Of a stretch of 64,000 bases of DNA, positions 50,638-64,000 are shown in pieces (the first letter of the stretch is position 1; every line of letters begins with the position of its first letter). The stretch spans positions 1,344,001-1,408,000 of the forward strand of contig CAWELD010000003.1 in the NCBI GenBank assembly GCA_963809895.1, in the 5' to 3' direction. Source of the DNA: an uncultured Gemmatimonadales bacterium (GTDB lineage: Bacteria; Gemmatimonadota; Gemmatimonadetes; Longimicrobiales; Gaopeijiaceae). The position numbers and the translations under genes were made by a program. A model generated the notes under the pieces. That model searched no databases and had not been told where the DNA came from. It saw only the letters and a list, made by a program, of their open reading frames with translations.

Positions 50638-53376
50638 TCAGGGTGACAGGATCAACGTCGCCAGCACCACCGGGGCGAGAATGTCGATGATGGCGCCCGA
50701 CGCCACGTGGACGGAGACGAAACGGACCACCGGGTCCAGCGCGAGGGCGGTTGCGCACGACTGAACCGTGGGGTTGGTCACCAGAACCTCTTTGACCGCC
50801 TCATGAAGGGCGTTGAGGAACTGGATGCGAATGGGTGTGAGCGCATCCACGCCCACGGTGTTGGCGAAGCAGAGGGTCACCTGGTCGGCCACCGCCGACG
50901 CGAAGTTGTTCACGGCGAGCGATCCCAGGTCGAGGGTCCAAGCGTTGTTGTCCCCGCCCTGGAGGCCCATGCGCTCGTTGGAGGTCCCCGCGCCTGCGAC
51001 GAAGTGGGTGTTGGCGTCTCCCTCGGCCTCCACGTTCATGCTGCCGGACACCGGCTCGCCGTCGACCTCCCCGTCCACCGGCACGGACTGGGTGCCGATG
51101 GCTACCACGCCCCCGGTATTCTCCTGTTCGCCCACGTGAATCGTGAGGCTGGTCTGCGTGGGCGGCGTGCATGGATTCCCGTCAGGCCCGTCGTTGAAGC
51201 TGTTGGTGACCACCGCAGGCCCGGCGATGGTGGTGACCCCGGCCATGGTGCCCTTGTCGCCGCCGCTGCCCGGGCCGTTGCCGTCGCCGCCCGCGCCGCC
51301 GTTGCCCGCGTCGGTGAGCTCCGTGCCCCCGCCCATGCCCATGGCCAACCCGGTTCCGCCGGCGCCGTCGCCACCGGTGGCGCTGCCCCCGGCTCCGCCG
51401 TTGCCCCCGGCTTCTTCGGGCTGATCCGGCTTGCAGTCGGCCCAGCCGGCACCGCCGTTCCCCATCATGAAGGACGCCATCCCGCCCTGGCCGCCGTTCC
51501 CCAGCAGGTCCCCGTCCAGGTTCTTCAGCTGGGCGTCACCGCCCTTGCCGCCGGTGGAGGCGAGCTGGCCGCCGTCGCCACCGTTCTTGTTGACCTGGAT
51601 GCCGTCGCCGCCCACGCCGGCGATGGCCTTGGCGTCGCCGCCTGCGCCGCCGTCCAGCGGTGTGTCCCCGGCCCCCCGGATCACGGGATCGGCGCCGGAC
51701 ACGTTGCCGCGCTTCGCCAGTTGCTTGTCGGGCGTCACACCGCCGTCACCGCCCACGGCCGTGGCGTCACCACCGTCCTGGGCGCGCTTGGTGGCGCTCT
51801 CGGCGTCTGCGCCGTCCGCCGCAGTCGCATTGGCGTGTCCGCCGGGGCCCGGCAGGCCGACCTCGAGGATCAGCGCGCCGGAGCTGCCGGCGTTGATGCC
51901 CCCACCCGCCCGGATGTCGATCAGGCCCGACATGCCGCCCTCGCCACCGTGCGCCGCCGCGCTCGGCGCCTTGAAGCCCTCGGTGGCGGGCTGCGCGACA
52001 CCGTCGGCGTGACCGCCACGGCCTCCGGCACCGGAGCGGATGATGTTGTTCGAGCCCTCGTAGTTCAGCGTGCCCGTCACGTAGGCCTTGATGAGGCCGC
52101 CGTCGCCGCCCTTGCCGCCGTTCACGTCCACGTCCTGGGCCGCCGTCTCGGAACCGTCGCCGCCCCGTCCGCCGTCCTGGCCCCACAGCAGCGTGTTGCC
52201 GGCGAAGATGGCGTTCCCCCGCAGCCGGAACTTCACCGTGCGGCCGTTCTGGCCGTCGGTGCCGTCGAGTCCGTCGGTGCCGTCCATGGCCGGGTCGGGG
52301 CCCGTGCCCCCACCGGCGTAGCGCACCGTGCTGTTGCTGACGCGCGTGAAGCGGACTCCCGGCCCGGCGGCCTCGGGGCTGTCCGGCACCGAGAACGGCC
52401 CCACGGCGGCCGGAAAGTCGTCGTCGGTGAGCGTGGGATCGTTGGTGAACTCCATGTCGCCGGAGCTGGTGACGGTGGCGCCTTCCAACGTCAGCTCACC
52501 GTCGGCGGCGATGCGCAGGTCGGCAGGCCCGCCGGAGAGATCCGAGCAACCGTTGGACACCGTGCCCATCACGGTGACCGCGGTGTCGCCCTGCACGTCC
52601 AGGGCACGGCAGTCGCCCTGAAGGGTCCCCTCCAGCGTGACCATCCCCGCGGCCCGGATCATGACGTCGCCCGTCATGGTGACCGTGACGCCCGGGGCGA
52701 TGGAGAACTGGTCGGCCAACACCTCTCCGCTGAGGTCCTGATCCTGGGTGATCTGCACGTCGGGGAGGAACACGTCCACCGGCGCCGTGGCCTCGACGCC
52801 GGAGGCCGCCCGGGCCGTGATCGTCGCCGTGCCCGCGCCTTCGCCGGTGACGAGCCCCGCGGCGTCCACGGTGGCCACCGCATCGTCGGACGAGGACCAG
52901 GTCAGCGTGGGCTGCTGGATCGACGCGCCCCCGGCGTCGCTGGCATCGGCCGAGAGCTGGAGCGTCTCGCCCACCGCCACCGAGCCATCCTGGGGCGAAA
53001 GCGTCAACTGATCCACCGCCTGCGCCACCGTGATGTCCGTGGTGCCGCTGGCGCTCCCCCCGTCCACGGTCGCCGTGATGGTGGCGGTGCCGTTGCCCGC
53101 CGCCATGGCCACACCGCCGCTGCTCACCGTGGCCACCGATCCGTTGGAGGTGGACCAGGTGAAGGTCAGACCCGACACGGTCTCACCCTTCGACGTGCGG
53201 CCCACGGCCGTGAGCTGCGTGGTCTCTCCGATGGACATGAGGGTGTGGACGGTGGCGGTGACCGTCACGGACGTGACGTCGCCCGCCCCCGGACCCGATC
53301 CATCATCCCCACCACAACTCGCCAGAGACACGGCGAAACCCACGAGCACCACTGCGACGCGGAGGGGGCGGCGCAT
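50638..53376 (-). CDS. Lipoprotein with two Ig-like (Big_2) domains and a long Gly-rich region
   Basis: Lipobox SLASC, WSTSNGSVATV and WSSSDDAVATV, GGxGG repeats. Confidence 0.85.
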   Translation of the reverse strand: MRRPLRVAVVLVGFAVSLASCGGDDGSGPGAGDVTSVTVTATVHTLMSIGETTQLTAVGRTSKGETVSGLTFTWSTSNGSVATVSSGGVAMAAGNGTATITATVDGGSASGTTDITVAQAVDQLTLSPQDGSVAVGETLQLSADASDAGGASIQQPTLTWSSSDDAVATVDAAGLVTGEGAGTATITARAASGVEATAPVDVFLPDVQITQDQDLSGEVLADQFSIAPGVTVTMTGDVMIRAAGMVTLEGTLQGDCRALDVQGDTAVTVMGTVSNGCSDLSGGPADLRIAADGELTLEGATVTSSGDMEFTNDPTLTDDDFPAAVGPFSVPDSPEAAGPGVRFTRVSNSTVRYAGGGTGPDPAMDGTDGLDGTDGQNGRTVKFRLRGNAIFAGNTLLWGQDGGRGGDGSETAAQDVDVNGGKGGDGGLIKAYVTGTLNYEGSNNIIRSGAGGRGGHADGVAQPATEGFKAPSAAAHGGEGGMSGLIDIRAGGGINAGSSGALILEVGLPGPGGHANATAADGADAESATKRAQDGGDATAVGGDGGVTPDKQLAKRGNVSGADPVIRGAGDTPLDGGAGGDAKAIAGVGGDGIQVNKNGGDGGQLASTGGKGGDAQLKNLDGDLLGNGGQGGMASFMMGNGGAGWADCKPDQPEEAGGNGGAGGSATGGDGAGGTGLAMGMGGGTELTDAGNGGAGGDGNGPGSGGDKGTMAGVTTIAGPAVVTNSFNDGPDGNPCTPPTQTSLTIHVGEQENTGGVVAIGTQSVPVDGEVDGEPVSGSMNVEAEGDANTHFVAGAGTSNERMGLQGGDNNAWTLDLGSLAVNNFASAVADQVTLCFANTVGVDALTPIRIQFLNALHEAVKEVLVTNPTVQSCATALALDPVVRFVSVHVASGAIIDILAPVVLATLILSP

Positions 53377-53497
53377 GAGCTCCTCCCTTGGTCTGTTGGA
53401 TCGGTCGGTCCGCCCGGCGGTCGAGCCCGGCGGGTACAATGTCCAGTATAGGCAGCGCCGCGGAGTGCGCGCCACGGATTCCTTGCGCACGGAAACG

Positions 53498-53546
53498 TGG
53501 ACGGGTCGACGGCGCCGTGATATCATTTATCGTATGAGTGATACTA
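53498..53546 (+). promoter_or_regulatory. Probable leaderless promoter with TGATATCA operator
   Basis: TGGACG-17-TATCAT, then 7 nt to ATG; tgatatca at 53518-53525 and tgatacta at about 53539-53546. Confidence 0.55.
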
Positions 53547-54100
53547 CCGACACCCTGCCCTCCGGTCGCTTTCTGCTCAGGATCGATCCCGCGCTGCACG
53601 CCACGCTCCGGGATCAAGCCGAGCGTCAGGGTCTGTCGCTGAACGAGTACTGCGCGCGGCGTTTGGCCTATCCGGGCCTGGACGTGGGGGGCCCCGCGCC
53701 GGACGCGGTGCGCCGAGCCCTGACCGTCACCCGCGGTCGTGTGCGCGGCCTCCTGGTGTTCGGATCGTGGGCGCGCAACGAGCTCAGCGACGACTCCGAC
53801 GTGGACCTGCTGGTGGTGTTGGACCGGGGGCAGGTGCTGGAGCGGAGCCTGTATCGCCGGTGGGACGAGGCTCCGGTGCTCTGGGAGGGGCGGAGCGTGG
53901 AGCCCCATTTCGTTCATCTTCCCGGCGAGGGCGACCGCGTCACGGGCCTGTGGGCCGAGGCGGCCCTCGACGGCGTGGTCCTGTTCGATCCGGACTTCGC
54001 CATGTCCCGCCACCTCGTGCACGTACGGAAGCAGATCCTCGCGGGGCGGCTGGTCCGCCGCGAGATCCACGGACATCCCTACTGGGTGGAGGCCGCCTGA
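53534..54100 (+). CDS. HicB-like RHH domain fused to minimal nucleotidyltransferase (MNT antitoxin)
   Basis: SGRFLLRIDPALHATL...GLSLNEY; FGSWAR...SDVDLLVV. Confidence 0.85.
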   Translation: MSDTTDTLPSGRFLLRIDPALHATLRDQAERQGLSLNEYCARRLAYPGLDVGGPAPDAVRRALTVTRGRVRGLLVFGSWARNELSDDSDVDLLVVLDRGQVLERSLYRRWDEAPVLWEGRSVEPHFVHLPGEGDRVTGLWAEAALDGVVLFDPDFAMSRHLVHVRKQILAGRLVRREIHGHPYWVEAA

Positions 54101-54525
54101 TGCACAACCCCGACCTGGCGCGGGACTACCTGCGACGCGCCGCGATCCGCCTGGAAGCGCTGGACGTGCTGTACGGCGGAGAGAGCTGGGCCGATGTCGT
54201 CCGCGAAGCCCAGGAGATCGTGGAGCTCACGCTCAAGGGTCTCCTGCGGGCCTGCGGCATCGACCCTCCCCGCATTCACGACGTGTCCGAGATCCTCCTG
54301 GCCGAACGGGACCGCCTCCCCGAAGGACTGGAGCCGGAGGTGGAGACGCTGGCCGAGATCTCGCGCCAGCTCCGCCGGGACCGCGAGCTGGCGTTCTACG
54401 GGGCCGAAGACCTGACGCCGTCGGGCTTCTATTCGAAGGGGGATGCCGAGCGCGCGCGCGACGGAGCGCGATCCACCGTCACCCTGGTGAAGCCACACGT
54501 CCTGGACCCGGCTGGGGGCGCATAG
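54100..54525 (+). CDS. HEPN domain protein
   Basis: AQEIVELTLKGLL...DPPRIHDV; coupled to the MNT gene. Confidence 0.85.
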   Translation: MHNPDLARDYLRRAAIRLEALDVLYGGESWADVVREAQEIVELTLKGLLRACGIDPPRIHDVSEILLAERDRLPEGLEPEVETLAEISRQLRRDRELAFYGAEDLTPSGFYSKGDAERARDGARSTVTLVKPHVLDPAGGA

Positions 54526-54528
54526 GCT

Positions 54529-56097
54529 ATGCCGAACCTCCCACCGCTGGACCAGATGCTCCAGGGCCCGGCCGCGCTCTACGGCGTTCTCCTGGTGCTG
54601 GTGCTGCTCCTTCTCGTGGTGCGGCGCTTCAGCGACGATCCGGCCATGCGCCGCAGGGCCATGCTGGTGAGCGGGCTGCTCTTCCTGTTCGTGGCGCTCC
54701 GGATCTGGCTGCGCTTCATCCCGCCGCTGGTTCCACGCCTGGTGGAGGGTGCCGGCGGCGAGCCCGCCCGCATGGTCCAGGTCACCAACCCGTTGGCGCA
54801 TTCCATCGTGGTCACGAGCCTGATCGTGGCGCTCCTGGCCGCGCTCCTCCTCGGGGCGCTCCTCCTCGTGGACGTGCTCCTGGTGCGCCGCCTGAAGGTG
54901 GAAGTGCCCAAGATCCTGCCGGACATCGCCGTGCTGGGGGCCTTCTTCTTCGGCGTGATCCTGATCCTCTACTACCGGACCACGCTGGACATCACGGGGC
55001 TGTTCACCACCTCGGCGCTCTTCACGGTGGTCATCGGCCTCGCGCTCCAGGACACGCTCGGCAACCTCTTCTCGGGACTGGCGCTCCAGACCGAGCGCTC
55101 CTTCCGCGTCGGCGATTGGGTCCGGTTCGGCACCTACGAAGGACTCGTCACCGACGTGTCCTGGCGGGCCACCAAGATCCGCACCCGGGACAACGACCTC
55201 ATCGTCGTGCCCAACACGGTCATGGGAAAGGACGCGCTGCTCAACTTCAGCGTCCCCACGCCGGTCCACGGCGTGGTCAGCGAGGTGGGATGCCACTATC
55301 GCCATCCCCCGGCATCGGTCATGGAGGCGCTGGAAGAGGCGGCGAGTCAGACGGAGGGTGTCCTGGCGCGACCCAGGCCCAGCGTACGCACCCGGGCGTT
55401 CGGCGATTTCGCCATCACCTACGAGATCCGTTACTGGATCCGGGATTATGCCGCGGAGCCCGAGATCCGCAGCGATCTCATGACCCGCATCTGGTACGTC
55501 TTCGATCGCCGGGGCATCGAGATCCCCTTCCCCATTCGCAACGTCTTCATGCGGGAGATGGCGGAGGGCGCCGAGGGCCGGTCGCCGGCCGACGACGGCG
55601 AGCGAGTGCGGGAACGCCTGGCGCGCTGCGACCTCTTCGCCTTCCTCAATGCCGACGAGCTGGCCCGCCTGGCCCGGAGGGTCCGCACCGAGCGCTACTT
55701 CACCGGCGAGACGGTCATCCATCAGGGAGCGACGGGGGATTCTCTCTACGTCGTCGACGAGGGGCGCGTCGAGGTGCTGGTGCGCTCCGGCGACAAGGAG
55801 CCCGAACGGGTGGCCGAGCTCGGCGTGGCGTCGTTCTTCGGCGAGATGAGCATGATGGTGGACGAGCCGCGCTCGGCGACCATCCGCACGCTGACCCCCA
55901 CCCGCTTCTTCGTCATCGACCGCGACGCGTTCCGCGACATCCTGCTCGCGAATCCCGCCATCGGCGACCGTCTGTCCGAGACCCTGGCCCAGCGCAAGCG
56001 GGAGCTGGACGCGGCGTTGGCCACCCCCGTCGAGGAGCCGCCCGAGGTGGAAGAGCGGCGAATCCTGGACCGCATCCGCGACCTGTTCGGGTTCTGA
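54529..56097 (+). CDS. MscS mechanosensitive channel with C-terminal cNMP-binding domain
   Basis: IGLALQDTLGNLFSG, FRVGDWV, IEIPFP, FFGEMS...PRSATI. Confidence 0.92.
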   Translation: MPNLPPLDQMLQGPAALYGVLLVLVLLLLVVRRFSDDPAMRRRAMLVSGLLFLFVALRIWLRFIPPLVPRLVEGAGGEPARMVQVTNPLAHSIVVTSLIVALLAALLLGALLLVDVLLVRRLKVEVPKILPDIAVLGAFFFGVILILYYRTTLDITGLFTTSALFTVVIGLALQDTLGNLFSGLALQTERSFRVGDWVRFGTYEGLVTDVSWRATKIRTRDNDLIVVPNTVMGKDALLNFSVPTPVHGVVSEVGCHYRHPPASVMEALEEAASQTEGVLARPRPSVRTRAFGDFAITYEIRYWIRDYAAEPEIRSDLMTRIWYVFDRRGIEIPFPIRNVFMREMAEGAEGRSPADDGERVRERLARCDLFAFLNADELARLARRVRTERYFTGETVIHQGATGDSLYVVDEGRVEVLVRSGDKEPERVAELGVASFFGEMSMMVDEPRSATIRTLTPTRFFVIDRDAFRDILLANPAIGDRLSETLAQRKRELDAALATPVEEPPEVEERRILDRIRDLFGF

Positions 56098-56816: not shown

Positions 56817-57299
56817 GTGGCCCATCGCCCGCTACCCGACGCGGCATCCGCGGCCTCCACGGCGCCGGTTTCCAGGCCGGCGCCTTCCGTGGCCGAGGCC
56901 GACGCCGCCGGCGGGCGCACTGCCCTGCTGAGCGTGCTGGGGTGGCTGGCTCTCCTCGCAGGTGGCCTCATCCTGTCGTTGGGCATGGCCTCGCTGGTCG
57001 GAGCACGGGTGCGCTCGGCCGCGCTCGTAGACGTGGACCGGAGCCCGGTGGGGTCGGTGCCCTCGTACTCCGACGCGCCCCGGGCGGCGCTGGCCTTCTT
57101 CGCCCGGCGCGACACGGTCACGGTGCGGGTGTCCCGAGACATGACCGTAGCCGACTTCCTCGCGCTCTACCATCTGGAGACCAACGCGTCGGCCCGAGCA
57201 GCCCTGAGGGATCAGCTGGGCGCCGTGGCCGATGCCGACCTCCTGCGTGAGGGTGACGAGGTCACGCTCACCGTCACCGTCGGCCGGGAGACGCCATGA
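56817..57299 (+). CDS. Single-TM protein with LysM-like C-terminal domain
   Basis: TM helix; VTVRVSRDMTVADFLALYHL...DLLREGDEVTL has a LysM-like pattern. Confidence 0.65.
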   Translation: MAHRPLPDAASAASTAPVSRPAPSVAEADAAGGRTALLSVLGWLALLAGGLILSLGMASLVGARVRSAALVDVDRSPVGSVPSYSDAPRAALAFFARRDTVTVRVSRDMTVADFLALYHLETNASARAALRDQLGAVADADLLREGDEVTLTVTVGRETP

Positions 57300-58147
57300 C
57301 GCCCGATCGCGATCCTTTCGAGTCGGGCCAGGACGCCACCGACGAGATCCGCCACGCCCTGGAAGCCATCCGCGCCGACGTGCGCGCCGTGGTGCAGGAC
57401 GAGGTGGCCCGAGCCGGCATGTCCGAAGGTGAGCTGGAGCGGTTCGTGGCCGACCTCGTGCGCAAGAACCTCACCGAGGCCGCCGAGGTCCGGCCGCGCG
57501 CCAGCGTGTGGAGCGCGCCCGTGCTCCTGCTCACCGGCCTGGTGGTGGGGCTGCTCGGGGGATTCGCCGGCTACTGGATGCTGGCGAGACCAACGACGGA
57601 CGGCGCACGTCCCCCGGCGCTGTCCTCGGCGGCACCCGACCCGGGAGCCGCCACCGCGCCCACCGAGACCGACGCCTCGGCCGCCCCCGCCAGCCAAGGC
57701 TCGCAATCCTCGACGTCGCCGCCACCGGCCGCGGCCGCGCCGACCGCGCTGGCCGCTCGCTACGATTCCCTCTTCGCGGCCCACGACCCGGGCCTGGAAC
57801 CGCTTCTGGCGGAGCTGGAGGGAAAGGCGGCCCCACCCGTGCTCGCCGCGCTGACGGAGTGGCGCGGCGGGGGGGCGCTGGACCCGGGCCCCCGGCGGCG
57901 GCTGCACGACGCACTGGTGCAGGCGGCGGTAAACCGCTTGGCCGGCACGGCTCTCACGCTGGACGGCCTGGTGACCCGGAACCCGTGCGGTGGGGCGTCG
58001 TGCGGCGCCATCCTGCAGCTGTGGCAGGCGCGAGGCCCTGAGCTGGGCCTGCCCGCGTATCCGGCAGCCGACACGGCCCGGGACGCCGCGCTGCCGACGG
58101 TGGAACGCGTCCTGGTCATGCGTGGACTGGAGGCCGACGGTGGCTGA
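57296..58147 (+). CDS. Single-TM protein, Pro/Ala/Thr linker, possible peptidoglycan-binding-like C-terminus
   Basis: ATGA overlap; TM helix; VQAAVNRLAGTALTLDGLV. Confidence 0.7.
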   Translation: MTPDRDPFESGQDATDEIRHALEAIRADVRAVVQDEVARAGMSEGELERFVADLVRKNLTEAAEVRPRASVWSAPVLLLTGLVVGLLGGFAGYWMLARPTTDGARPPALSSAAPDPGAATAPTETDASAAPASQGSQSSTSPPPAAAAPTALAARYDSLFAAHDPGLEPLLAELEGKAAPPVLAALTEWRGGGALDPGPRRRLHDALVQAAVNRLAGTALTLDGLVTRNPCGGASCGAILQLWQARGPELGLPAYPAADTARDAALPTVERVLVMRGLEADGG

Positions 58148-60263
58148 CGTCGTGTCGCTGGACCGTCACGTCCTGGCCTCACCGGCCACGGCCTTCGACA
58201 CGGCCTGGTCCACGTACGGCTGGACCCCCGGCATCCAGGACCGGGTGGGGCGCCTCGAGGAAGAGGTACCCTGGGGAACCCACGTGGCCCGGGCCACGGA
58301 CCCGCCGCGGTTGTCGGGACCGGCCCAGGCGCTCCTGAACCCCGACAACCTGGACCGGTTGGGAAGCGGGGTTCTGAGGGTGGACGGCCGCCTGGGCTTC
58401 GCCCTGTGGGGCGCCTTCGGATCGGGCTCCGGCGGCGCGGACCGCCGCGTGCTGACCCACACGCTGCTCATGGACGACGCCGCCTTCCGGCAGGTGGCCG
58501 GCTATCCGCAGGGGCTGCTCTGGGACGGCGACCGGCCGGCGGCGTGGTTCCGGGAGTTGGCGGAAGAGCAGGACTTCCTTGAACCCACACCGTTGACCCC
58601 GGTGCGGCTGGGTCTCGAGCGGGCGCGTACCGCGGCCCTCGCCCGGGCGCGCATCGTGGAGTTGGACCGGCTCCGGGGCGCCGTCCTGGATCAGCTCGGC
58701 GGCGACGTCGATGGCCTGTCCTCGCTCCTGGCCACGACCTACGAGGCCGTGGCCCGGGCCAGCGCCGGCGACCAGGTCCGCCATGTCGTGGTCCGAGGCG
58801 TGGGCGCCGCCACCTCGCGGCTCCTGAAGCTGGTGTGGCTGTCGCTCCCGTTGGAGGACCGCATCCGCGTGTCGTACGTGACCGAGCAGCGTCGGTCGGA
58901 ACGGCCCCGGGGCCTGCTCCTGGGCCTCCCCGAGGCCGAGTGGGGACGCTACGTGCCCGACGGCTCCTGGGTGGTGGACGAGCACGAGCCCGCCGAAGCC
59001 GGCGCCGGTCGCGTGCACTGGGCGCGGGCGCTCACGGCCCCGGATTCGCTGGAGACGTTCCGGCGTCTGGACGCCCGGGCGGCGAGTCGCCGGTGGCGAC
59101 TGGTCACCGCCGACGACCTGGCAGCGGAGGGCGCCCGGGGCGCCTGGCAGGTGGCGTGGGCGTCCCGAGGTCCGACCCTGGACGGTGTGCGGGCCCTGCT
59201 GGAGCTGGAGCGTCGCCGTCCGGGGGGCGTCCGCGCCCGGGCGCTGGGCCAGGCGCTGGGCGAGGCCGTGGCGACGACCACGACCGAACGCCCCGGCGCC
59301 GTCGACGCCATGGACGATGCGCTGAGCCTGTCCACCGAGCTCCCGGCGAACGCGCGCATGGGCGTGCTCCGGGGCGCCGTGCGCGCCCTCCGCGCTCGAG
59401 GTCCCGACGGACGGCGCCGCGCCGCGCTGCTCCGGTGCCGGGCGGCGGCCTCCGGTGACGCCGAGCTGTCCAGCGAGCTCCACCGCCTCGTGGACCGGGA
59501 GTCCGACGCGCTCCGTGCGCTCGTGGCCGATCCCGAGAGGGGAGGCGGCCTGGAGCTCGTCCTGGGCGCGCTGCCGCTGGCCGCCACCGGCGACCCGGTG
59601 GGCCGGGAGCTGGTGCGCCTCGGGGCCGCCGAGACCCGCTGGACCCCGGCGCGGGCCGCGACGCTGGGCACCGCTCTGGCCGCCCGGGCAACGGATGGCG
59701 ATCTCGACCCGATCCTGGCCGACATCCTGACGACGCTGCTGCGCGAAGGAGACCACGAGGGTTGGCACCGGCTGGTGTCCGAGGTTCCGGCGTCGTGGCT
59801 CGCGCGCCCGGCGATTCTGAGAGAGCTGATCGGTGGGATCGAGGCCGGCCGCCACCCCTTCGGCGCCGGCGCCCCCGAAACCGGCGAGCTCGCCGACAGC
59901 CTGGCCCGCCGGCTCCTGGAGCGCGCGGGGCGGACGGGGTTGGGTCCCGAACGCGCCACGGCGGTGCTCCGTCTGCTGTGGGCCGCGGGATCCGACGAGC
60001 CCCTGGACGCCCTGGATCTCCATGCGAGCACCCGCGTGCCGGTGCTGGCGGAGCTGCTGGCCGTGCCGGCGCCCCTGCCCCTCTTCCATGGCATCCGGCG
60101 GCGGCTCGAGCGCGCCCTGGACGCGGCGGGCGCGGATCGTTCGGCCGAGCCCTGGGTCGACACGCTTCGGCCCTGGGCACCGGCCCTGGCGCGGCGGTTG
60201 GCCGGCAACGACTCGGCGGCTCCGCACCCGGCGCCCCGCTTCCTGGTAGGAGCCGGATCGTGA
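58140..60263 (+). CDS. Hypothetical protein, possibly GAP1-like (alpha/beta N-terminus, helical C-terminus)
   Basis: Overlaps both neighbours; WSTYGWTPGI...GADRRVLTHTLL; directly precedes the GTPase gene. Confidence 0.7.
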   Translation: MADVVSLDRHVLASPATAFDTAWSTYGWTPGIQDRVGRLEEEVPWGTHVARATDPPRLSGPAQALLNPDNLDRLGSGVLRVDGRLGFALWGAFGSGSGGADRRVLTHTLLMDDAAFRQVAGYPQGLLWDGDRPAAWFRELAEEQDFLEPTPLTPVRLGLERARTAALARARIVELDRLRGAVLDQLGGDVDGLSSLLATTYEAVARASAGDQVRHVVVRGVGAATSRLLKLVWLSLPLEDRIRVSYVTEQRRSERPRGLLLGLPEAEWGRYVPDGSWVVDEHEPAEAGAGRVHWARALTAPDSLETFRRLDARAASRRWRLVTADDLAAEGARGAWQVAWASRGPTLDGVRALLELERRRPGGVRARALGQALGEAVATTTTERPGAVDAMDDALSLSTELPANARMGVLRGAVRALRARGPDGRRRAALLRCRAAASGDAELSSELHRLVDRESDALRALVADPERGGGLELVLGALPLAATGDPVGRELVRLGAAETRWTPARAATLGTALAARATDGDLDPILADILTTLLREGDHEGWHRLVSEVPASWLARPAILRELIGGIEAGRHPFGAGAPETGELADSLARRLLERAGRTGLGPERATAVLRLLWAAGSDEPLDALDLHASTRVPVLAELLAVPAPLPLFHGIRRRLERALDAAGADRSAEPWVDTLRPWAPALARRLAGNDSAAPHPAPRFLVGAGS

Positions 60264-61783
60264 CTATCGACGCGCTGTGCCGTCGCTGCCACGGGCCCCT
60301 CAACGACGAGGGCCTGTGCCCCCGCTGTGACGCCGACGAGGTGGAGGTGGCCACCAAGCTCCGCCAACTCCGGGCCGAGATCGCCCGGGAGCGGGGCGAG
60401 CAGGCGCCGGCCGAGCCCGTCAGCCGCCTGTGGCACGCCAAGAAGGAGAAGCTGGAGCAGGCCAAGCGGGAGGCCGAGAAGAAGCGAGCGGCGGCCGCGT
60501 CCGCCGACGAGGCTCCCGACCACGCGGGCCGCGGGGCTCCTTCGCAGACGTCACCGGCCGAGCCTCCCCCGCCCGAAGAGCACGTCGCGCCCGAGCCGGA
60601 CACGAAGAGCGCCCCGCCCGCCGGCCCCGCTCGGGTCCACCGGGCCGGGGTGTCGGCCTCGGGCATCCGGGCCCGCGAGCTCGACGTCACCGACCCCCGC
60701 CACGGCAGCGAGGCCGTGCGTGAGCTGCTCGAGCACCGCCGCCGGGGCCTGGGCAAGATCGTGGGCATCGCCGGGCTGCCACGGCACGGCAAGACCAAGC
60801 TCGCCGACCGCCTGCGGGAGCGGTACGCCGAGCGCCCCGGAGCCGACCTCCGCTACGACAAGACCGAGCGGGGCGAGGTCAACCTCTACTACATCCCCGG
60901 ACGCCGCGAGCACCACGTGCTGGTGGACGTGGCCGGCGAGGACTTCCAGGCGCTGGGCGACTACGAGCGCGAGCTCCCGGCCCTCATGCGCCAGTTCCTG
61001 TGGCCGGTGCTCCAGGAGCTGGACGGGCTCGTCCTGCTCATGGCGCTCCCCATCGTGTGGGCCGGCTGGAGCGATCCCCACTCGGAAACGCGGGTCGAGC
61101 CCAGCGAGCGCGACGAGATCGCCATGCGCCAGGCACGGGACCGCATGGTGGCGGCGCACCGCATGCTCCTGAAATACGCCATCGTGGCCCGGGACCTGAA
61201 GCGGCTGCGCCGGGTCGTTCCGGGTCTGGGTCTGTCGGCCACCGAGGTCCCCACCCGCAACCAGGTGGACGACGCGGTACCCTCCGCGCGCCGCCTGTCG
61301 GTGCCGGTGTCGGTGGGCTTCAGCAAGGCCGACCTGTACGCGCCGGGCGAGGGGCCCGACGCCGGGGGCGGACTCCGGCGCGTGGGCCTCTACACGCCGG
61401 ACGTGCCGGGACGGAGCGGCCAACCCGCCCCGCCGCTCCATCCCCTGCACACCGATCCCCTGATCCTGGGCTATCTCCACTTCCCGGAGCTCTTCGAGTT
61501 CATGGAGACGCGGGTGCGCCACTTCCACTTCGACTTCGTGCAGGCGCTGGTGGACCGGAGCGAGGAGCCCGATCCCCAGGAGGCCACCGAGGCCGGCGCC
61601 GATGCGGGCCGGGGCACGCTCCTCGGCGGAGAGGGACTGGTGGAGTTCGTGACGCAGCATCCGTGGCGCGTACCCGGTCTGGACACCCGGCGGGCGCTCA
61701 AGCTGAATCGCTTCCTGGACCCGCGCCGCTGGGACCGCAAGCTGCTCAGGGCCCTCCACGACCGGGATGGAGGCGACCGATGA
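60260..61783 (+). CDS. Zinc-ribbon / coiled-coil / TRAFAC-like GTPase
   Basis: CRRC...CPRC; G1 GLPRHGKT, G2 KTERG, G3 DVAGE, G4 SKAD. Confidence 0.8.
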   Translation: MTIDALCRRCHGPLNDEGLCPRCDADEVEVATKLRQLRAEIARERGEQAPAEPVSRLWHAKKEKLEQAKREAEKKRAAAASADEAPDHAGRGAPSQTSPAEPPPPEEHVAPEPDTKSAPPAGPARVHRAGVSASGIRARELDVTDPRHGSEAVRELLEHRRRGLGKIVGIAGLPRHGKTKLADRLRERYAERPGADLRYDKTERGEVNLYYIPGRREHHVLVDVAGEDFQALGDYERELPALMRQFLWPVLQELDGLVLLMALPIVWAGWSDPHSETRVEPSERDEIAMRQARDRMVAAHRMLLKYAIVARDLKRLRRVVPGLGLSATEVPTRNQVDDAVPSARRLSVPVSVGFSKADLYAPGEGPDAGGGLRRVGLYTPDVPGRSGQPAPPLHPLHTDPLILGYLHFPELFEFMETRVRHFHFDFVQALVDRSEEPDPQEATEAGADAGRGTLLGGEGLVEFVTQHPWRVPGLDTRRALKLNRFLDPRRWDRKLLRALHDRDGGDR

Positions 61784-63834
61784 GGCGCCCGCGCATGCGA
61801 GGGCTCAAGAAGGTCGTGGTGGGCACGGGTCGCCGGGTGCGCCCCGGGCGAGGCGCGCTGGCCCTGCTCGCGCTGTGGGTGGGCGCCCTGGTGGCGGGAG
61901 CCGGAGGGCTCTTCTGGTGGGCCACCGCCAGCGCGTCGCCGGCCCGGACCCTGGCGCTGGCGGCCAGCGTGCTGCGGGAGCCTCCGGCGCTGGACTCGGC
62001 GCTGGAGGTGACCTGGACATGGTCCGTGGGAGGCACCCGTGACCTGGGAGATCGCTGGCTGGCCCTGGTGGCGCCGGCGCTGCCCCCGGGAATCTGCGTG
62101 TCGGCCGGCACCGAGCTGGACGATGCGTTGCGTCAGCTGGATGCCTCGGTGAGCCGCGGGGCCGGCGCCGAGGAGCTGGAGCGCCGACTGTTGGCGTTGC
62201 GCTCGGCGGGGACCGCGGCTCCCGGCAGCCGGGCCGAGTTCGTGGTGCGCTACAACCTGGCGCGCGGGTACGGCGCCGCCGGCGACTGGGCCACCGCGGC
62301 CGAGGTGCTGGAACCGGTCCTGGCCGGCTGGATCTCGCTGGAGCGGGTCCCGGAGACCAACGCCGGCACCGCCCTGGCCCGGGTGCGCCGCGGCGCCGTG
62401 GACCAGGAGTCGGCGCTGGACGCCTTCCACGGCCGCTACCTGGCGGGCACCATCGCCTACCGCCGCGGTGAGCCCGCCCGGGCCGTGGCCCATTTCCGCC
62501 GGGCCATCAACGCCGTGCACTACCTGCTCGCGCTGGGCGCCGGCGGTTCGCTGGGACCCGAGTCACACGACGAACGGGTGGTGGCCGCACTGGGCCCGGC
62601 CCGCTGTCCCGGAGCGCGGAGCGACGACGCCCTCACCTCGCTGGACGCCTACGCCGGGCTGGTGGCGTCGTACATGGCCGACACCGGGTTCCGCGACCCC
62701 GGTGGGCTTCCGGCCGAAGTGGCACGGACGCGGCTCGAGATCGATGCCGACGACCCCTTCGGACCTGTGCTGGAGCACGCGCGCCTGACCCGGGGCGATC
62801 CGGCGCGCACGCCGGTGCCCGAGAACCTGATGTGGGCGGCGTCCAACCTGCAGCGGGTCTACTACCACAACCGGCTCCGCCCCGAGCCCCGGCTCGAGGT
62901 GACCCGGGCGGTGCTGCTCCTGCACCTCACGGACCGCGACCCGTGGACCGAGGCGTTGCGGGAGCAGGGCGGCGCCGACGTGTGCCGCATGCTGGGCGAG
63001 CTGGGCGACGATCTGGAGCGCGATCAGTCCACGCTGCAGATCGGGCGAGCGCCCGGCGCACCGGTGGACAGCGCCCGGGCCGCCGTGGCGGTGCGCACCT
63101 TCGCCCGGCTGCAGCGGGACTGCGGAGGCGAAGGCGCCCCCACCGTCGATGCCCGCGCGCGGAGCGACTGGATCCGCATGGGCGGGCCCTACCTGACCCG
63201 AGGCGTGGGCAGCCTGTTCGAGGAGCTGCGCAGCCAGGTGGCCGCCGCAGTCCGCGAGGCCGGCACGCCGGTGCCCGTGCTGGAGGAGCGGCTGGCGCCG
63301 CCGGTGGAGCGGGCCAGCGCCTACCGGGCGTCGCTACACCGGGGTCGAATCCCCGGGGAGCTGCCCGCCGATCTCCCGGTGGCCCCGGTACGAGGCTTCG
63401 TGGACGACTGGTGGCAGGCCCTGTTCTCGGACGTAGCGGAGAGCCTGGTGGCCCGCGTGCGCCGGCCCGCCCCCGCCGGAGACGGCTCCATCCGGGCGGG
63501 CGAGGTGCCCGAGCTGCTGTCGGCGCTGGAATCGTCGGCCCACTACGCCGGGCTCCGGCCCGACCAGGTCTACTCCGTGTCCGAGACCGCCTCGCTGGCG
63601 GCCACGGGAGGTGCCCGAGCGGAACTGGGCTGGCGGCTACGGACCTGGATGCGCAACCGGCCGCTGGCGGCGGCGGGTGTACTGGCCGCCGTGGTGCTGG
63701 CCCTCACCGTGGCCGCCCTGCTGATGCACGTGAGCTGGTGGCGCTACCGGCTGCTCACCCGGCAGCGGCTGTACGTGGAAGAGGCCCGGGCCCGGGGCGT
63801 CGCCGAGGCCGGAACGCGGAGGAACGCCGCATGA
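61780..63834 (+). CDS. Membrane protein, two terminal TM helices flanking a large TPR-like domain
   Basis: YNLARGYGAAGDWATAAEVL and YLAGTIAYRRGEPARAVAHFRRA. Confidence 0.75.
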   Translation: MRRPRMRGLKKVVVGTGRRVRPGRGALALLALWVGALVAGAGGLFWWATASASPARTLALAASVLREPPALDSALEVTWTWSVGGTRDLGDRWLALVAPALPPGICVSAGTELDDALRQLDASVSRGAGAEELERRLLALRSAGTAAPGSRAEFVVRYNLARGYGAAGDWATAAEVLEPVLAGWISLERVPETNAGTALARVRRGAVDQESALDAFHGRYLAGTIAYRRGEPARAVAHFRRAINAVHYLLALGAGGSLGPESHDERVVAALGPARCPGARSDDALTSLDAYAGLVASYMADTGFRDPGGLPAEVARTRLEIDADDPFGPVLEHARLTRGDPARTPVPENLMWAASNLQRVYYHNRLRPEPRLEVTRAVLLLHLTDRDPWTEALREQGGADVCRMLGELGDDLERDQSTLQIGRAPGAPVDSARAAVAVRTFARLQRDCGGEGAPTVDARARSDWIRMGGPYLTRGVGSLFEELRSQVAAAVREAGTPVPVLEERLAPPVERASAYRASLHRGRIPGELPADLPVAPVRGFVDDWWQALFSDVAESLVARVRRPAPAGDGSIRAGEVPELLSALESSAHYAGLRPDQVYSVSETASLAATGGARAELGWRLRTWMRNRPLAAAGVLAAVVLALTVAALLMHVSWWRYRLLTRQRLYVEEARARGVAEAGTRRNAA

Positions 63835-64000
63835 TCCTTCTGCTGCTGGGCGTGGTGTGCTTCGTGGCCGCTCTCCGGGTGGCCGGAAACGGCCGGGAGG
63901 GCGCTGGCGAGCTCGTGCGCGGCGCCGGAGCCGCGGCGTGGGCGGCGCTGGTGGCGCTCCTGATCCTCCTGCAGCTCGCCGTGGGGGCGCGCCGGGACCG
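63831..64000 (+). CDS. Membrane protein, truncated by window end
   Basis: ATGA overlap; MILLLLGVVCFVAALR... Confidence 0.65.
   Translation, partial: MILLLLGVVCFVAALRVAGNGREGAGELVRGAGAAAWAALVALLILLQLAVGARRD

Follow-up and report, generated by a model that had tools for sequence, protein, structure and literature searches.

A seven-gene operon joining a zinc-ribbon GTPase to a divergent SEDS protein and a class-B-like transpeptidase: a candidate peptidoglycan synthase under G-protein control

The window analyzed here, a 64,000-nt stretch of DNA from an uncultured Gemmatimonadales bacterium (assembly GCA_963809895.1; positions 1344001-1408000 of contig CAWELD010000003.1), ends within an operon of seven genes, designated A to G. 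The operon encodes a zinc-ribbon GTPase (D) together with a divergent protein of the SEDS (RodA/FtsW) fold (F) and a class-B-like penicillin-binding protein (PBP; G). It is interpreted as an accessory, horizontally moved peptidoglycan synthase under the control of a G-protein switch, a reading to which we assign a probability of roughly 0.5. This interpretation is built on the observed gene set and its order, the folds of D and F, the catalytic motifs of G, the rarity of the operon, and its status as an extra copy.

The seven open reading frames (ORFs) lie on the + strand between 56817 and 69605, and the operon extends past the end of the window; coordinates above 64000 continue the window count along the contig. 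Successive genes, from A/B to F/G, overlap by 4, 8, 4, 4, 4, and 4 nt. The phase of the GC content at third codon positions shifts at every junction, matching the ORF frames, and genes on the opposite strand adjoin the operon on both sides. A first-pass annotation of the window had described six co-oriented genes with overlaps of 4-8 nt, the third encoding a protein of ~707 aa; all of this is found at the same place, and a seventh gene, G, lies beyond 64000. The features are as follows.

A, 56817..57299, + strand: 160-aa protein with a single transmembrane (TM) segment and a conserved C-terminal domain of ~65 aa; the start codon is uncertain and the frame is open from 56694.
B, 57296..58147, + strand: 283-aa protein with an N-terminal helical/coiled region, one TM segment, a low-complexity linker, and an outer helical domain with a Cys pair.
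C, 58140..60263, + strand: 707-aa soluble protein with divergent GAP1-like N and M domains and a long variable tail.
D, 60260..61783, + strand: 507-aa zinc-ribbon, coiled-coil, DxxGE TRAFAC-type GTPase, a divergent paralogue of the DO-GTPases.
E, 61780..63834, + strand: 684-aa protein with a TM segment, a predicted periplasmic TPR-like domain, a second TM segment, and a short conserved C-terminal tail.
F, 63831..67046 (contig end 1411046; the window holds 63831..64000), + strand: 1071-aa protein with two TM segments, a beta domain of ~390 aa, and a SEDS fold with extra helices.
G, 67043..69605 (contig 1411043-1413605, wholly beyond the window), + strand: class-B-like penicillin-binding transpeptidase with SxxK, SxN, and KTG motifs.

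F is, by its modeled structure, a divergent SEDS protein. The model, obtained from 41 sequences with a mean predicted local distance difference test score (pLDDT) of 86 and a predicted template modeling score of 0.88, superimposes on RodA (8tj3; Z 19.7, root-mean-square deviation (rmsd) 4.2, 326 of 341 residues aligned), FtsW (8bh1; Z 18.3), and RodA (6pl5; Z 17.3). Across the RodA and FtsW structures, 323-326 residues align with an rmsd of 4.0-4.5, and the next structural match is the ligase WaaL (Z 9.4). At the sequence level, the feature FTSW_RODA_SPOVE is carried by 27 of 30 atlas matches to residues 600-1040 (0.94), and the F profile aligns with six housekeeping SEDS rows, representing four distinct genes, at E 9e-5 (score 44 vs 13-16 for five shuffles). 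One orthologue of F passes the PF01098 cut-off and another reaches E 6e-4. PDB sequences searched with the F and A profiles (hmmsearch) yield chance rows only. The first-pass annotation called F a membrane protein and could not have recognized the SEDS-PBP pair that F and G form, the likely output of the operon.

A profile alignment places E841 of F on the aspartate of the SEDS HTD motif in ECL4, and this column is acidic in all 41 sequences, with Glu in 33 (including the source genome) and Asp in eight. The column of G199 is likewise kept throughout (41/41 by hhalign). According to PMC8765783, D297 of E. coli FtsW is the putative catalytic residue, and FtsW mutants at W138, G199, G371, Y379, and G380 are non-functional. 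H842 of F was considered as a WaaL-type catalytic histidine and rejected because it is Phe in 7/41 sequences, whereas 841 is acidic throughout. In the whole-F model, a beta domain spans residues 57-445; its fold is FHA-like but degenerate, with middling structural matches (Z 7-8.7). The Gly-Arg motif, through which FHA domains bind phosphothreonine, is absent. Counting helices back from the SEDS loops, this domain is predicted to lie outside the membrane.

The assignment of G rests on its catalytic motifs. In an alignment of an intact orthologue with 49 of its 69 homologues (n = 50), S394, K397, S457, N459, T728, and G729 are present in 50/50 and K727 in 49, forming the SxxK, SxN, and KTG motifs of the PBPs. 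The best PDB matches of the G profile are PBP2, PBP3, and FtsI (E 1e-6). G of the source genome has no Pfam match, as is also the case for F; within the family, the Pfam Transpeptidase profile is matched weakly by 5/50 members, and two gammaproteobacterial orthologues pass its cut-off. The match of G to pbp2_mrdA (E 4.5e-9) falls far short of the equivalog cut-off, and the pedestal domain PBP_dimer gives no Pfam match among the 50 members. Both F and G carry family-specific outer domains. G is not called a lipoprotein because its lipobox-like Cys sits at the first of the frameshifts described below and is absent from the family consensus.

The source genome encodes FtsW near FtsI and RodA next to PBP2, both away from the operon; therefore, F-G is an extra, third pair. 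Ordinary SEDS genes are likewise found elsewhere, with at least one in each of five genomes tested and two in four of them. The envelope role initially proposed for the operon holds. F-G resembles RodA-PBP2 and FtsW-FtsI in that a SEDS fold is followed by an N-terminally anchored transpeptidase with all three motifs, encoded by adjacent, coupled genes. However, there are several differences: F is 1071 aa long, with a large beta domain, extra TM segments, and Glu for Asp in 33/41 members; the F-G genes are located outside the dcw and mrd clusters and are extra to the housekeeping pairs; and they are tied to a GTPase module rather than to FtsZ/FtsQLB or MreBCD. SpoVE-SpoVD is another SEDS-class B PBP synthase, and the actinobacterial operon fhaA-fhaB-pstP-rodA-pbpA-pknA-pknB encodes a SEDS-PBP pair together with a signaling switch (kinase and phosphatase) and FHA-fold domains. 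The latter shares with the present operon a non-canonical SEDS-PBP pair encoded with a switch and FHA-fold domains. In contrast, the switch here is a GTPase, and the FHA-like fold of F has no Gly-Arg motif and is predicted to be outside the membrane.

D harbors two CxxC pairs and a coiled coil, followed by G1 (G172, G177, K178), T202, D223xxG226E227, and S355-K356-x-D358; across 51 close and 44 wide sequences, these motifs show little or no variation. In the wide set, D223 and G226 are present in 44/44, E227 in 42/44, and K356 in 22/44. The zinc ribbon formed by the CxxC pairs is found in 15/51 close and 22/44 wide sequences. A structure model from the 51 sequences (pLDDT 79) matches G-alpha, EF-Tu, IF2, GBP1, and Rheb by Foldseek, with weak E values, and Arf, MglA, Rag, and Rab by a wide structural aligner (best Z 12.6, rmsd 3.4, 162 residues aligned). 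Thus, the initial description of D as a CxxC-CxxC, coiled-coil GTPase with G1-G4 motifs stands, and the P-loop fold on which it depended is recovered in the model. An exhaustive profile search with D yields 100 clusters at E 0.001 and 17 at 1e-30, comprising several subfamilies.

The closest published counterparts of this switch are the DO-GTPase/GAP1 systems defined by Kaur et al. 2020 (PMC7159879); of the published systems, 38% contain a second GTPase paralogue. D itself matches neither Pfam profile, DO-GTPase1 or DO-GTPase2, with 0/51 close sequences at E 0.05, 0/52 distant sequences (those scanned of the 100 clusters) at E 0.001, and none in scans of its own genome; one D orthologue matches at E 0.008. 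A survey of 201 genomes from the phylum of the window shows no canonical DO-GTPase2 at E 1e-8. A DO-GTPase2 match above the cut-off at contig position 1106694 was set aside as an Era-like GTPase, so named from its sequence.

The connection is made by relatives of the operon. A second zinc-ribbon GTPase, X, is encoded behind A in 12/12 loci showing A among L049-L067, often followed by a GAP1-N-like domain that is either alone or fused to B. X passes the Pfam DO-GTPase cut-off in 3/6 cases tested, gives a 97% profile match to two canonical DO-GTPases, and is matched by the D profile at 96% (E 5e-9, covering G1-G3). A second GTPase is absent from 11/11 Longimicrobiales loci reaching A and from the rest of the source genome, and L171 and L172, from the class of genome G728, also have one GTPase only.

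C matches GAP1-M at E 8e-4, below the cut-off. Among 26 members of the C family, GAP1-N2 is weakly matched in five (best E 2.7e-5), GAP1-M is weakly matched in six, and GAP1-C is matched in none; the L171 orthologue reaches the GAP1-N2 cut-off (24.1 bits vs 24). By sequence, C appears to be a weak relative of GAP1 rather than a proven GAP1. The complex predicted for D (140-500) with C (1-330) has a score of 0.01, which is uninformative either way. The GTPase/GAP1 link suggested at first pass therefore holds at the level of relatives, through the C orthologues and X, but not for D, which misses the DO-GTPase profiles.

In its overall composition, the operon shares with the DO-GTPase/GAP1 systems a TRAFAC-type GTPase fold with a Glu after Walker B and an N-terminal zinc ribbon, a GAP1-N2/M-like neighbor (C), two GTPases in the fuller copies, TM components, and a mobile, patchy neighborhood. 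It differs in that D misses both DO-GTPase profiles, only one GTPase is present in this lineage, and the cargo is fixed. Moreover, no cassette protein scanned has a Pfam match to GASH or FNIII, and EAD1 has no match in the cassette. One genome that carries the cassette also carries a canonical system of DO-GTPase, GAP1-N2/M, and DO-GTPase (L178:1411-7128, G727:C83).

A, B, and E are membrane proteins; the labels first suggested for A and B find no support. A, taken for a LysM-like protein, has no Pfam match, and its hhalign score for LysM (15.1) is within the range of 30 shuffles (maximum 19.0); its best atlas matches bear LysM at 0.80, which is below the 0.9 mark and serves as a lead only. 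Similarly, B has no Pfam match, and the PG-binding-like tail attributed to it scores 11.0 against PG_binding_1, below the shuffle maximum of 14.2. The N-terminus of B is predicted by charge to be inside, and in some Acidobacteriota B is fused behind a GAP1-N-like domain. At L058:5054-9718, a GAP1-N-like domain, B, and C form a single ORF of 1,555 aa (a fusion or an assembly error), while in three related genomes (loci L034, L035, and L036), B ends after the TM segment and linker, without the Cys-pair outer domain. For E, the two TM segments of the proposed TM-TPR-TM arrangement are present, but the TPR matches are weak and below the cut-off. The predicted periplasmic domain of E contains invariant C106, C276, and W352-A-x-S-N356, and its C-terminal tail, predicted to be cytoplasmic, keeps Y665 in 26/26 and E668 in 25/26 sequences.

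Conservation of the gene set elsewhere had been named at first pass as a test of the operon, and it is borne out in two groups of loci. All 12 Longimicrobiales loci keep the gene order; A-G is whole in 10, and contig ends truncate the remaining two. A distant D subfamily comprises 19 loci in Thermoanaerobaculia and other Acidobacteriota, Thiomargarita, Achromatium, other Pseudomonadota, and one unclassified bacterium; A-G is whole in nine of these, and most of the others are cut short. The same order recurs in three phyla, represented by Longimicrobiales, Thermoanaerobaculia, and giant sulfur bacteria. Wherever the contig reaches, the same E-F-G cargo is encoded, with one exception (L052, below), and there is no variable effector slot. 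Named homologues belong to Gemmatimonadota, mostly Longimicrobiales, which is taken here to be the group of the host.

The cassette is rare. D is found in 1/40 relatives (a second match is limited to the coiled coil), in 0/19 congeners (same genus), in at least three of 400 genomes of the phylum (strong matches), and in at least 11 of 400 genomes of the order. Members of the G family under 1e-90 occur in 10/201 genomes of the class of genome G728 (nine without the unpublished G908) and in 3/55 genomes of the order of genome G729, with fragments in a fourth. In a quick, unrooted tree, nine Gemmatimonadota rows form one clade, while three gammaproteobacterial rows are nested among Acidobacteriota, and this nesting suggests an old transfer between phyla. 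A collection of plasmids contains no match to the G orthologue.

The setting of the operon is also variable. It is located in a 26.7-kb stretch bounded by two genes, which we take from their sequences to be citrate synthase and aconitase. In four congeners, the distance between these two genes is 0.4, 1.9, 4.5, and 11.2 kb; in a fifth, they are on separate contigs. The flanks of the cassette vary between genomes; RES, Fic, AbiEii-type ATPase, helicase, or transposase genes are a minority, and the rest are unrelated (85 of 90 picked flanking ORFs).

The proposed mechanism comprises a predicted enzyme activity and substrate, as well as the protein contacts, gating, and topology that would serve them. 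D would cycle between GTP and GDP in the cytoplasm with C as its GAP1-type regulator; in fuller copies, the switch would also include the additional DO-GTPase and GAP1-N-like domain. B, E, and A would span the inner membrane and carry the switch across it; the conserved inner tail of E and the inner helices of B are likely docking points, and the outer TPR-like domain of E is a likely scaffold for F-G. F would polymerize lipid II, or a lipid-linked unit akin to it, and G would cross-link the product, such that F-G would act as a third pair beyond FtsW-FtsI and RodA-PBP2. The activated complex would then build or patch the wall at one spot. The most likely trigger, put forward tentatively, is an attack on the envelope (by phage, predator, or contact) that leads to local wall reinforcement, as would be expected from the published DO-GTPase model.

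Several observations weigh against a functional synthase wired in this manner. F is far diverged, with no Pfam match for the protein of the source genome and no Foldseek match of the whole protein under E 0.001. Its catalytic column is occupied in most members by Glu instead of Asp, and the column of the essential W138 is Glu in 41/41 by hhalign. In a by-eye register that hhalign leaves unaligned, G371 is kept, while Y379/G380 of the SYGG motif are seemingly replaced. The substrate of F may differ from lipid II. In the source assembly, G has three frameshifts within its first ~700 nt when compared with a homologue that is 60-80% identical by segment. When C is compared with a single canonical GAP1, its score does not exceed that of shuffled sequences. 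Finally, L051 has no detectable B or C, with D directly after the N domain, and L052 (Achromatium palustre) encodes C-D-E with no F or G in the following 8 kb.

The frameshifts in G reflect either an assembly error or decay in this strain. G is a single ORF in 20/20 other loci that hold it whole, and a DNA contig spanning the first two breaks shows two gaps, at positions that are not listed, and so hints weakly at an assembly error. None of the sequencing runs holds half of the query words. In one metatranscriptome, B, C, D, E, and G are covered by short contigs of near-identical sequence, which is not proof of transcription.

The altered active-site columns of F, together with the outer domains specific to the F and G families and the fold shared with WaaL, which is the fourth structural match, raise the possibility that F is a transferase of the SEDS fold that serves another glycan or linkage. 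With G, it would then decorate the wall or anchor something to it, or open the wall for a trans-envelope machine, instead of producing ordinary peptidoglycan. However, the Z scores of RodA and FtsW are twice that of WaaL, G keeps all three PBP motifs, and no sugar-synthesis or secretion genes recur among the flanking ORFs examined, rendering this alternative distinctly unlikely.

With respect to purpose, the patchy spread and island setting would favor a conflict response for the G-protein-gated synthase, while the fixed cargo, the intact catalytic residues, and the lack of a PADLOC match under E 0.001 in 14 proteins leave morphogenesis open. The first-pass proposal of an envelope-sensing switch for defense, contact, or morphogenesis is retained for the envelope, but defense is unproven because the gene content is fixed rather than effector-variable. 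A developmental role, in which the additional SEDS-PBP pair would form a bud, a stalk, a resting-cell wall, or a cell-cell junction at a site marked by the GTPase, has parallels in MglA, which marks a site in Myxococcus, and in SpoVE-SpoVD, which serve sporulation. The best fold matches of D include MglA (Z 12.0, level with Arf-type rows), the gene content is fixed across three phyla with no variable effector slot, the PADLOC result is negative, the flanking genes are mostly unrelated to defense, and the Gemmatimonadota copies form one clade. Nevertheless, the cassette is not found in 19/19 congeners and 389/400 genomes of the order (the hits being a floor), which would be odd for a core shape trait, and the gammaproteobacterial copies nest among Acidobacteriota. 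On balance, a developmental role is considered unlikely.

According to PMC7159879, DO-GTPase/GAP1 systems acquire modules, typically inactive ones, from other cell systems. The operon could be a classic conflict system whose captured effectors, F and G, are inactive or dominant-negative and would jam the wall machinery of the host, killing or arresting the infected cell. The patchy spread, the island-like setting, and the RES, Fic, AbiEii-type ATPase, or transposase genes in a few flanks are consistent with this view. It is very improbable, however, given that the catalytic residues of G are kept in 49-50/50 and the acidic catalytic column of F in 41/41, and that the F-G pair is constant rather than swapped.

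A second arrangement bears on the generality of the GTPase-controlled synthase. Among the weaker matches of the G-family search, ORFs of ~1,700-1,750 aa with a PBP region are followed by a P-loop GTPase gene in 5/5 loci examined, and DxxGE is seen in three of the five GTPase genes. The middle of the fused ORF aligns to F (80%, E 1e-5, score 53 vs a shuffle maximum of 23), with an Asp at or beside the F catalytic column. The members scanned have no Pfam match over the cut-off. This fused class appears as three genes, encoding a SEDS-like and PBP-like fusion, a zinc-ribbon DxxGE GTPase, and an uncharacterized protein of ~440 aa; its loci in the class of genome G728 are L168, L169, L170, L176, and L177 (genomes G888, G788, G812, G832, and G912), with L179-L182. 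It is conceivable, if speculative, that switches of the DO-GTPase type were linked on more than one occasion to divergent SEDS-PBP modules, split in the present operon and fused in the second class, giving an undescribed general class of G-protein-gated peptidoglycan synthases that would lay down local wall on a signal, for example to seal the entry of a phage or predator. Such a class would make wall building an immune output and would add a third means of steering SEDS enzymes to FtsZ and MreB.

A literature search, whose coverage of subscription papers is thin, found no description of the cassette; the first-pass annotation had likewise recognized no named system of this composition. Two other papers refer to DO-GTPases in passing only. 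The main text of PMC7159879 lists tubulin, HSP70, and kinase-PP2C-vWA among the GAP1-N2 themes and contains 0 occurrences each of FtsW, transpeptidase, penicillin, and LysM. FtsW, RodA, and transpeptidase have 0 occurrences in two of its supplements; the neighborhood supplement, which is outside this coverage, could hold the arrangement. The cassette joins two known kinds of module in an arrangement not found in print and, in some features, falls short of strict membership in each of the two families.

SEDS-PBP synthases are steered by cytoskeletal filaments and by divisome/elongasome regulators. If the present interpretation is correct, a SEDS-PBP pair wired to a small GTPase would bring wall synthesis under a new principle of control. 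The cassette would also provide the DO-GTPase/GAP1 systems, which in the literature covered are predicted from genomics only, with a concrete enzymatic output that can be assayed. F and G are nearly invisible to standard annotation, and third synthase pairs have therefore been missed, including those in giant sulfur bacteria.

Additional genes surround the operon. Upstream, at window 53205-54525 (+, start approximate), a gene for a HicB-like and nucleotidyltransferase protein is followed by a HEPN-like gene, resembling an MNT-HEPN toxin-antitoxin pair. Window 54529-56097 (+) encodes an MscS-like channel whose C-terminal domain resembles cyclic-nucleotide-binding domains; for this gene, no match was found at E 1e-30 in five congeners. 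Beyond the window, a sodium:solute-symporter-like ORF at contig ~1432450-1433610 (+) seems to start out of frame, suggesting further indels in the assembly. The variable stretch that holds the operon also contains a secreted-looking protein of ~910 aa with Ig-like repeats and a long Gly-rich region (window 50638-53526, -) and, past the window end, an RHS-core fragment with a short C-terminal tail (contig 1418794-1420272, -).

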